Below are positions 33,201 through 36,200 of a stretch of DNA of 64,000 nucleotides, one piece after another (positions within the stretch are counted from its first letter, which is position 1; every line of letters starts with the position of its first letter). Below the pieces are notes generated by a model that had not been told where the DNA came from, did no database searches, and was given only the letters and a program-made list of their open reading frames with translations. The position numbers and the translations under genes were made by a program. The stretch comes from Eledone cirrhosa. Lineage: Eukaryota. The stretch is taken from NCBI GenBank assembly GCA_964016885.1, contig OZ024764.1:7502001-7566000 (forward strand), read 5' to 3'.

Positions 33201-36200
33201 AGGGCCAAGGACACCAGAAGTCTCCACTGCTACAGGTAGCTAGATCTGTGCCTATGGTGGTAAGTAGGGAGGTAGCCCTAGGGTCAAGGACACCAGAAGT
33301 CTCCACTGCTACAGGTAGCCAGCTTTGCACCTATGGTGGTAAGTAGGGAGGTAGCCCTAGGGCCAAGGACACCAGAAGTCTCCACTGCTACAGGTAGCTA
33401 GATCTGTGCCTATGGTGGTAAGTAGGGAGGTAGCCCTAGGGTCAAGGACACCAGAAGTCTCCACTGCTACAGGTAGCCAGCTTTGCACCTATGGTGGTAA
33501 GTAGGGAGGTAGTCCTAGGGTCAAGGACACCAGAAGTCTCCACTGCTACAGGTAGCCAGGTCTGTGCCTATGGTGGTAAGTAGGGAGGTAGTCCTAGGGC
33601 CAAGGACACCAGAAGTCTCCACTGCTACAGGTAGCTAGGTCTGTGCCTATGGTGGTAAGTAGGGAGGTAGCCCTAGGGCCAAGGACACCTGAAGTCTCCA
33701 CTGCTACAGGTAGCTAGATCTGTGCCTATGGTGGTAAGTAGGGAGGTAGCCCTAGGGTCAAGGACACCAGAAGTCTCCACTGCTACAGGTAGCCAGGTCT
33801 GTGCCTATGGTGGTAAGTAGGGAGGTAGCCCTAATGCCAAGGACACCTGAAGTCTCCACTGCTATAATCTCACATTTAGACCTGTTTCTCTCTAGATATA
33901 CCTACTGTTATAGTCTCACATTTAGACCTGTTTCTCTCTAGATATACCTACTGCTATAGTCTCAGTTTTAGACCTGTTTCTCTCTAGATATACCTACTGC
34001 TGTAGTCTCACATTTAGACCTGTTTCTCTCTAGATGTACCTACTGCTGTAGTCTCACATTTAGACCTATTTCTCTCTAGATATACCTACTGCTATAGTCT
34101 TACATTTAGACCTGTTTCTCTCTAGATGTACCTACTGCTATAGTCTCACATTTAGACCTGTTTCTCTCTAGATATACCTACTGCTGTAGTCTTACATTTA
34201 GACCTGTTTCTCTCTAGATATACCTACTACTATAGTCTTACATTCAGACATGTTTTTCTCTAGATATACCTACTGCTATAGTCTCACATTTAGACCTGTT
34301 TCTCTCTAGATATACCTACTGCTATAGTCTCACATTTAGACCTGTTTCTCTCTAGATATACCTACTGCTATAGTCTCACATTTAGACCTGTTTCTCTCTA
34401 GATGTACCTATTGCTGTAGTCTTACATTTAGACCTGTTTCTCTCTAGATGTACCTACTGCTGTAGTCTCACATTTAGACCTGTTTCTCTCTAGATATACC
34501 TACTGCTGTAGTCTTACATTCAGACCTGTTTCTCTCTAGATATACCTACTACTATAGTCTTACATTCAGACCTGTTTCTCTCTAGATATACCTACTGCTA
34601 TAGTCTCACATTTAGACCTGTTTCTCTCTAGATGTACCTACTGCTGTAGTCTTACATTTAGACCTGTTTCTCTCTAGATGTACCTACTGCTGTAGTCTCA
34701 CATTTAGACCTGTTTCTTTCTAGATATACCTACTGCTGTAGTCTTACATTCAGACCTGTTTCTCTCTAGATATACCTACTACTATAGTCTTACATTCAGA
34801 CCTGTTTCTCTCTAGATATACCTACTACTATAGTCTTACATTCAGACCTGTTTTTCTCTAGATATACCTACTGCTATAGTCTCACATTTAGACCTGTTTC
34901 TCTCTAGATATACCTACTGCTGTAGTCTTACATTTAGACCTGTTTCTCTCTAGATATACCTACTACTATAGTCTTACATTCAGACCTGTTTCTCTCTAGA
35001 TATACCTACTGCTATAGTCTCACATTTAGACCTGTTTCTTTCTAGATATACCTACTGCAATGGTCTTACATTTAGACCTGTTTCTCTCTAGATATACCCA
35101 CTGCTATAGTCTAATATTTAGACTTCTTTTTCTCTAGATATACCCACTGCTATAGTCTAATATTTAGACTTGTTTTTCTCTAGATATACCCACTGCTAGA
35201 GTCTAATATTTAGACTTGTTTCTCTCTAGATATACCCACTGCTATAGTCTCACATTTAGACCTGTTTCTCTCTAGATATACCTACTGCTGTAGTCTCACA
35301 TTTAGACCTGTTTCTCTCTAGATATACCTACTGCTATAGTCTTACATTTAGACCTGTTTCTCTCTAGATATACCTACTGATATAGTCTTACATTTAGACC
35401 TGTTTCTCTCTAGATATACCCATTGCTATGCTGCAAAAGCCAGTATTTTCAAACATAACGTAAGTACAATTTTCATGCAATTATTGTTGTTGCAGTTGCA
35501 GTTGTTATTTGCCTGCAGTAAAAGAATGTTACAAGATCTTGAGTTTCAGATAAACATATTTAATTACTTTATAAATTGGATTTTATGTGTGTGTGTGATC
35601 CCAGAAGATCCCAATGGAGGGAAGCTGTGGCAGTGGTAGACCAAGGAAGACGTGGTGAGAACTATCTCAAATTGCTGAGACTAGCAGAGGAGATGATGAA
35701 GGAACATGGCAACTGGTGAGATGCTGAAGAGGACCTGTCCAACCCATGCAACCATGAAAAAGTGGACGTAAAAACGTTGATGATGATGATATCAGTAAAA
35801 GTTTCTGAAAGCATTTCGCTTTGACTAAGGCTTGCTCGACTATTAACCAACACTAAAAACTTTTCTGTAATATTTCGGTAGTGCTGATGATGATGATGAT
35901 GATGGTGGTGGTGGTGGTGGTGGTGTCATGGTGGTGGTGGTGGTGGTGGTGGTGGTGGTGGTGGTGGTAGTGGTGGTGGTGATGGTGGTGGTGGTGGTAG
36001 TGATGGTGGTGGTGGTGATGATAATACTAATGGTGGTGGTGGTGGTGGTTGTCATCATTGTTGTCATGGTAGTAGGGATGGTGAAGAAGAACCTTCTAAC
36101 TTTCATACCCTGCTCATCATTTCTAACTACACATTTCCTTATATTTACAATTTTATTTATTACAGGTCTGCTAATTTCGGTGGATTAGGAACTGCGATTG

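Follow-up and report, generated by a model that had tools for sequence, protein, structure and literature searches.

Introduction

Tandem duplications of an intron-exon boundary are known as mirages, and the founding paper on them is reportedly that of Canestro et al. 2002 (NAR 30:2871). Amphioxus mirages of this kind occur in Adh3, troponin C, BflGb6/BflGb9 and PGBD5, and regular splicing was reportedly indicated there by reverse transcription PCR (PMC3087553, PMC3902484). A similar situation exists in intron 7 of human F7, where a 37-bp variable number tandem repeat (VNTR) contains pseudo-sites that are functional when tested but silent, with the exon-adjacent copy alone being used (PMC1557585). 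In this study we analyze a 64,000-nt stretch of the Eledone cirrhosa genome (assembly GCA_964016885.1, forward strand of contig OZ024764.1, here called C25, positions 7502001-7566000; hereafter the window) which contains a 46-bp minisatellite that ends at the acceptor of a short coding exon in a predicted M13 (neprilysin/ECE-like) peptidase gene. A first-pass annotation of this stretch had proposed that the minisatellite is a real splice acceptor amplified in such a way that 33 decoy 3' splice sites stand in front of the authentic one.

Repeats that span a boundary constitute natural competition experiments for splice-site choice. We used a combination of repeat analysis, simulated splicing, genome searches and comparison of gene copies to examine this proposal. 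The reading that we prefer, to which we assign a probability of roughly 0.6, is that the array is a mirage minisatellite in which a 46-bp piece containing a 3' splice site has been amplified, with the 33 extra acceptors predicted to be essentially unused. Beyond what the first-pass annotation had described, we find that the array is common to four paralogous gene copies, one of which has as many as 3,325 units, and that it belongs to a kind of repeat that has already been described.

Results

Structure of the 46-bp array

Tandem Repeats Finder reports a repeat with a period of 46, 34.2 copies, 93% matches, 0% indels and a score of 2605 at positions 33858-35429 of the window, and nhmmer counts 34 units arranged head-to-tail. 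When the array is cut in register with the authentic acceptor (Table 1), the AG at 35413-46n, with n running from 0 to 33, is intact in 34 of 34 units. Each unit is composed of a 16-nt copy of the exon head and a 30-nt intron tail that holds a branch-point-like CTYAC, a pyrimidine tract and the AG. The branch-point-like 5-mer at -27 to -23 reads CTTAC in 15 units, CTCAC in another 15, CTAAT in 3 and CTCAG in 1, and the pyrimidine tract of the authentic unit is pyrimidine at 11 of its 15 bases. As the first-pass annotation had written, the exon-head consensus of the units is ATATACCTACTGCTAT versus ATATACCCATTGCTAT in the exon itself. Identity with the authentic acceptor extends over -20 to +3 in 14 of the 33 decoys and over -20 to -1 in 20 of them.

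The array terminates in the authentic boundary, the last, partial repeat copy being the first 16 nt of the authentic exon, and it is only behind unit n=0 that the remainder of the exon (30 nt) and GTAAGT are found. At the opposite end, the first unit (33850-33895) is chimeric between the 46-bp repeat and the 79-bp array beside it. A head-to-tail array, a unit that spans the boundary and an authentic boundary that forms the terminal unit are defining features of a mirage, and the array has each of these. The register-cut units also bear out the first-pass description of a real acceptor amplified into 33 decoys, each with a branch-point-like motif, a tract, an AG and about 16 nt of exon head, as well as the observation that only the last unit runs on into coding sequence and GTAAGT.

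Consequences of decoy use were assessed by simulated splicing from the upstream exon at 32153-32208. The labels exon 11, 12 and 13 that we use for this exon, the 46-nt exon and the next exon are those of the first-pass annotation; located here are two upstream and three downstream exons around the 46-nt exon. Choice of the n=1 acceptor lengthens the exon to 92 nt and brings a TAA into frame at +7 of the next one, while the remaining 32 decoys lead to a TAG at +90 of the extended exon (28 of 32), a TAA at +21 (3 of 32) or a TGA at +57 (1 of 32). A premature stop codon therefore follows from every one of the 33 decoy choices. The first-pass annotation had placed the upstream donor correctly at 32208 and had foreseen both the frameshift of the 92-nt exon to a TAA early in exon 13 and the in-frame stops met from all earlier AGs, although it had named only TAG for the latter. 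Additionally, a motif search of the array found no GTRAG donor-like motif inside it, so a slip to a decoy would not be repairable by a second splice.

Folding of the last four units together with the exon gave no indication of an RNA structure that masks the decoys (z = +1.0), and no match to an Rfam family was found in 30000-38000. The acceptor itself gives no advantage, and the only features that distinguish the authentic site are the 30-nt exon body and its GTAAGT donor 46 nt downstream.

Support from DNA reads was obtained from three runs of one sample, in the form of short contigs aligned to 33500-35800 with several bins without cover; these runs are possibly from the assembly's own sample, so their support is not independent. 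Words of the 46-bp unit occur at a depth of about 10^3 versus about 4-13 in the unique flank, a depth in keeping with a genome that holds thousands of units. Furthermore, in each of the three runs the window-specific variant units at 35085-35160 are spanned, at single-copy depth, by a mismatch-free contig of 76 nt. All array lengths given here are as assembled, the DNA runs having been kept as short contigs that collapse repeats.

Four paralogous gene copies carry the array

A search of the 3.0-Gb genome with the array end plus the exon returned 802 matches and, among the 150 of these that were listed, all fall at four places on C25. At three of the four places the exon and donor flank are 93-94% identical to the query. 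The gene region as a whole has undergone segmental duplication, giving four collinear regions in which long non-repeat blocks are about 85-98% identical and the unique intron flanks beside six exons are 2-4% different from those of the window copy. In addition to the window copy (W), collinear copies are present at 5.42-5.64, 7.15-7.20 and 25.30-25.36 Mb of C25, and are referred to as copies C, B and D, respectively. Their units were counted by nhmmer using a profile built from the window's units (Table 1).

The array in copy C occupies 158,971 bp (C25:5458398-5617368) of an intron of about 163 kb and has a single interruption of 6,068 bp. This insertion contains a pol-like open reading frame (ORF) of 1,051 amino acids with a DTGAS motif, which we take to be that of a retrotransposon protease, and a second ORF of 277 amino acids that is presumably gag-like.

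Since the array is located at the same exon in all four paralogues, it is older than the gene duplications and has grown or shrunk independently since then. Unit variants are partly common between arrays (unit positions 3, 15 and 22) and partly array-specific, a pattern that would be expected from independent turnover after duplication. A left flank common to copies B, C and D is replaced in W by a 79-bp x 15 array, and because the other three copies keep this different flank, the left edge of the window array is a later rearrangement. Truncation has probably left the window with a remnant of 34 units.

Among nhmmer-aligned units the AG is kept in 34/34 units of W, 65/65 of D, 118/128 of B and 3,252/3,325 of C, with the units without an AG being one-base deletions or truncated local alignments. 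A separate pattern count finds an AG in front of 3,166 of 3,211 unit heads. There is no sign in these units of selection either to keep or to kill decoys, as the AG is as variable as most other unit positions.

Age of the intron and origin of the array

Other M13 genes of the genome provide a view of the boundary without the array. In the gene at 7.66 Mb of contig C24 (C24:7662055-7662192) the equivalents of exons 11 and 12 are fused in one exon, for which the window counterpart is VNAFYYQDNSIYIPIAMLQKPVF. In the M13 gene at C24 7.81 Mb the two-exon split is seen on both sides, with the same place and phase as in the window gene, and the homologue of the short exon is array-free and 52 nt long as counted from the printed sequence. 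A separate short homologous exon is also present upstream of the next exon's homologue at C24 7.52, C3 56.2, C3 193.17 and C3 89.05 Mb. The 46-bp repeat is absent from the 60 nt upstream of the acceptor in the printed exons of all five array-free M13 genes. This comparison indicates that the intron is old, that the short exon is ancestral and that its first 16 nt code for residues of the family. As the intron position is common to array-free M13 genes, the array was copied from the boundary and not the boundary from the array.

Several other ideas about the origin and nature of the array were set aside. Intron gain by the mirage, which is suggested by the fused exon at C24 7.66 Mb, was rejected in view of the intron at C24 7.81 Mb and of the short exons in the four further M13 genes. 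Origin by slippage on a 10-nt direct repeat, to which the tail of the 79-bp unit and the exon head contribute, was rejected on account of the left flank of copies B, C and D, which is without the 79-bp array. The arrays of these three copies start within 1-2 nt of an exon-head copy, and such starts would be compatible with, though no proof of, slippage between short direct repeats located 46 bp apart. The equality of exon and unit length (46 = 46) is most likely a coincidence given the 52 nt of the homologous array-free exon. Finally, regeneration of a U12-type or recursive 5' site at the decoy junction was rejected because there is no GTRAG in the array and because the unit head, ATATACC, does not fit what we take to be the U12 donor consensus.

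The host gene and the state of its copies

Three exons of the window that match PF01431 stand in profile order: ORF 35903-36253 matches profile positions 11-52 (E 1.7e-4), ORF 42845-42925 matches positions 96-118 (E 0.0056) and ORF 46399-46584 matches positions 169-202 with 28.4 bits, which is above the 24.5-bit cut-off. Further upstream, ORF 21103-21288 aligns with PF05649 positions 340-372 (E 0.0021) with 18 bits, below the 32-bit cut-off, in a scan limited to window positions beyond 16141. Exons 11, 12 and 13 keep one reading frame (...VNAFYYQDNSIYIPIAMLQKPVFSNITSANFGGLGTAIGHQIFHAFNID). By these matches the host gene is an M13 peptidase homologue on the + strand. A search for annotated homologues of the last-exon ORF (62 amino acids) gave 83 word-sharing candidates, none of them at E <= 0.01. 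The catalytic Glu of the HExxH motif is replaced in the window copy (HQIFH, 36196-36210), and the window gene is consequently predicted to encode a catalytically inactive M13 homologue.

All four copies keep AG/GT at exons 11, 12 and 13, with exon 11 having AG and GTAAGT in each of them. The compared exons are open in all four copies; six exons were compared in W, B and C, but five in D, where a homologue of the exon at 21139-21243 was not recovered under the criterion used. Copy B has its stop one codon early. The ratio of non-synonymous to synonymous differences (pN/pS; Nei-Gojobori, 146 codons) lies at 0.39-0.48 for five of the six pairs and reaches 1.0 for W-D, with counts that are small (for example, 8 synonymous versus 12 non-synonymous for W-B). 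Exons have diverged on the same scale as introns, and the gene family looks weakly constrained. The catalytic Glu is replaced by Q in W and by K in C and is kept in B and D, so the sequences would make W and C probable inactive pseudo-peptidases. No relation is seen between array length and loss of the catalytic Glu among the four copies, as it is lost at 34 and 3,325 units and kept at 65 and 128.

Two side observations concern the coding sequence of these copies. W and C have each undergone an independent change at the first base of the codon for the catalytic Glu. In addition, the five codons of the exon head (35414-35429) differ among the four copies far more than does the rest of the exon (IPIA, IPTA, VPFA and VPLA), and the window's exon head has a C at unit position 8 in common with the nearest upstream units. 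This exon-head pattern suggests that sequence may be exchanged between the array and the coding exon.

Table 1. Location of the array, of the exons and repeat next to it, and of the four gene copies. Positions are window coordinates unless given for C25.
Feature	Position	Strand	Remarks
46-bp decoy-acceptor array	33850..35413	+	34 units; n=1..33 decoys, n=0 authentic acceptor (AG 35412-35413)
Upstream coding exon, end of N-terminal domain	21139..21243	+	flanks CAG and GTAAAT
Exon 11, 56 nt, ends ...SIPNEMIVNAFYYQDNSI	32153..32208	+	phase 1 end; donor GTAAGT from 32209
79-bp x 14.9 minisatellite, immediately adjoining the 46-bp array on its left	32688..33864	+	14 strong donor-like GGTRAGTA motifs
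Exon 12, authentic, 46 nt, (Y)IPIAMLQKPVFSNI(T)	35414..35459	+	open frame; homologous to a segment of another M13 gene of the genome
Donor of the short exon, GTAAGTAC	35460..35467	+	sole GTRAG-type donor between the array and the next exon's donor
Exon 13, (T)SANFGGLGTAIGHQIFHAFNIDG, zinc-binding motif HQIFH	36166..36233	+	PF01431 match
Downstream M13 exon, INLEEVTQENIADLGAIKIAYK	42854..42919	+	PF01431 match
Last coding exon, stop TAA	46479..46587	+	PF01431 match
Copy W (window)	C25 7.50-7.566 Mb	+	34 units; zinc motif HQIFH
Copy D	C25 25.3 Mb	+	65 units; zinc motif HEIFH
Copy B	C25 7.17 Mb	-	128 units; zinc motif HEIFH
Copy C	C25 5.46-5.62 Mb	+	3,325 units; zinc motif HKIFH

Neighbouring repeats

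Among the four paralogues, the 79-bp array next to the decoy acceptors is found in the window copy only. Words of its unit occur at a depth of 10^4-10^5 in the DNA runs, and from this very high depth the 79-bp unit belongs to a very abundant repeat of the genome. A 30-bp x 20 array at 45821-46424 stops 55 nt short of the acceptor of the last exon; its units each carry an acceptor-like TTTCAG, and the unit is not a copy of the last exon's boundary. The introns and flanks of the gene are densely filled with further long minisatellites and microsatellites, located at 24262-30321 (57 bp x 98), 6094-8846 (40 bp x 69), 37307-38287 (29 bp x 34), 38701-40234 (51 bp x 30) and 47196-54422 (7-kb TA-rich), with the 57-bp array being common to the paralogues. 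With about 25 separate arrays in the window alone, the genome would be strongly prone to minisatellites.

Discussion

A mirage with probably silent decoys

If the 46-bp array is a mirage, as we favor, then its birth and growth would have occurred by replication slippage or unequal exchange. The spliceosome would pick the last unit by exon definition, with the exon remainder and a strong GTAAGT lying within 46 nt of this acceptor, and any mis-spliced decoy product, with its premature stop, would be removed by nonsense-mediated decay. The array itself is likely to be a tolerated, neutral or slightly costly by-product of minisatellite instability and not a control device.

A number of points weigh against this picture. 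The authentic acceptor has no sequence advantage over the 14 decoys that equal it from -20 to +3, and the authentic exon is just 46 nt long whereas decoy exons of 92, 138 and 184 nt would be of more usual size. First-come-first-served reasoning would favor upstream copies. Early experiments with duplicated splice sites, as summarized in the F7 report, conflict as to which copy is used (PMC1557585). The pN/pS of 1.0 for the W-D pair, which like the other ratios comes from small counts, and the replacement of the catalytic Glu in W and C with its retention in B and D raise the prospect that the gene may be of little importance to the animal.

The latter points lead to an explanation in which these duplicates of the gene are in decay or are not expressed, the decoys then being without consequence and there being no selection mechanism to explain. 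The replaced catalytic Glu of W and C, a W-D ratio of 1.0 with exon divergence of an intron-like order, the failure to find a homologous annotated protein for the last-exon ORF and the presence in one copy of a 159-kb array with a retrotransposon-like insertion in its intron are all in line with decay. However, the five or six compared exons are open in all four copies, exons 11-13 keep AG/GT, pN/pS is 0.39-0.48 in five of six pairs and both B and D keep HEIFH. On balance we regard decay of the copies as unlikely.

An alternative raised by the first-pass annotation is that the array is a splicing rheostat, in which length-dependent use of decoys together with nonsense-mediated decay would set the output of each gene copy or allele. 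This idea can draw on the 33 intact decoys that each lead to a premature stop, on the 14 that equal the authentic site, and on the roughly 100-fold range of array length among the paralogues. Length-dependent effects of intronic VNTRs on splicing are also known, for example that of the intron-18 VNTR of ABCA7, as listed in a review (PMC13196383). Against it, pseudo-sites are silent in the published boundary-spanning repeats, and the examined exons are open in copies with anywhere from 34 to 3,325 units. The catalytic Glu is lost at both extremes of array length (W and C) and kept between them (D and B), loss of the AG is neither enriched nor depleted relative to other unit positions, and with at least 25 minisatellite arrays in the window no selection is needed to account for this one. 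Nothing in the present evidence supports a rheostat, and we hold it to be improbable.

More doubtful still is the proposal that decoys, either the first transcribed or the nearest upstream, are heavily used and that the array is deleterious, a hitch-hiker crippling a gene from which it has yet to be purged. Decoy and authentic acceptors that are identical in sequence, as well as an authentic exon that is unusually short, would permit such use, and in some of the early experiments, whose results conflicted, the copy used was reportedly the one proximal to the opposite splice site (PMC1557585). A crippling array is difficult to reconcile with its presence before the split of four paralogues whose unique flanks have diverged by 2-4% and whose examined exons are still open, and published acceptor-side mirages are described as splicing normally. 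Finally, that the array or its length is an artefact of a mis-assembled repeat is very improbable because, even though the available runs are short contigs that collapse repeats and a mis-assembled mirage was noted in a draft genome in the amphioxus globin report (PMC3087553), the unit words have about 10^3 depth versus about 4-13 in the unique flank, the variant units at 35085-35160 are covered without mismatch at single-copy depth in all three runs, and four independent loci exhibit the same architecture with locus-specific unit variants.

What the four copies could reveal

Returning to the mirage with silent decoys, the identity of decoy and authentic acceptors means that position and downstream exon context alone can decide between them at this locus. 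The positional rule, if true, is that the acceptor copy attached to the exon body and donor wins. The four paralogues form a natural dosage series in this regard: if all of them are correctly spliced, this would establish a hard positional acceptor rule that takes no account of identical competitors upstream, even when these exceed 3,000 and extend across 159 kb, and otherwise copy number would set paralogue-specific output in a true minisatellite rheostat, an outcome that we do not expect. The locus also shows that an array of this kind can persist through gene duplication and that, inside an intron, it can grow from minisatellite to satellite size. Taken on its sequence alone, the locus is a well-documented curiosity of a known type.

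Comparison with described boundary-spanning repeats

Among the amphioxus mirages, BflGb6 is, like the window array, acceptor-side and is composed of an intron 3' end and the 5' part of an exon. The units of amphioxus mirages keep AG/GT, their length is unstable and the boundary unit escapes homogenisation; the present array likewise keeps its AG, and its length varies among the four paralogues. It lies in a genome of 3.0 Gb, as against about 0.5 Gb for amphioxus. Copy number differs considerably, with 34 to 3,325 units here versus 3-6 in BflGb6, and unlike the amphioxus mirages the present array has been inherited by four paralogues.

The F7 VNTR resembles the window array in having a terminal unit that holds the authentic boundary and in presenting identical splice sites in succession. 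It differs in being donor-side, with the first unit authentic and 5-9 copies, whereas the array described here is acceptor-side with 34 to 3,325. It was also dissected experimentally with 50 constructs (Borensztajn et al. 2006, PMC1557585). The 25-bp VNTR in intron 18 of ABCA7 is likewise a minisatellite lying in an intron close to an exon, and its length may change splicing in the manner that the rheostat idea envisages (PMC13196383). That repeat does not copy the authentic boundary, and its effect is exon skipping.

The amphioxus and F7 precedents lend support to a choice of the last acceptor by exon context, and strict selection of the last copy would fit these cases as published. What is added here is an acceptor-side array whose copy number far exceeds any in the published cases (34 to 3,325 versus 3-9). 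The mirage is a kind of repeat that has already been described, and this one departs from the published cases in its scale, its survival through gene duplication and probably the lineage of its host.

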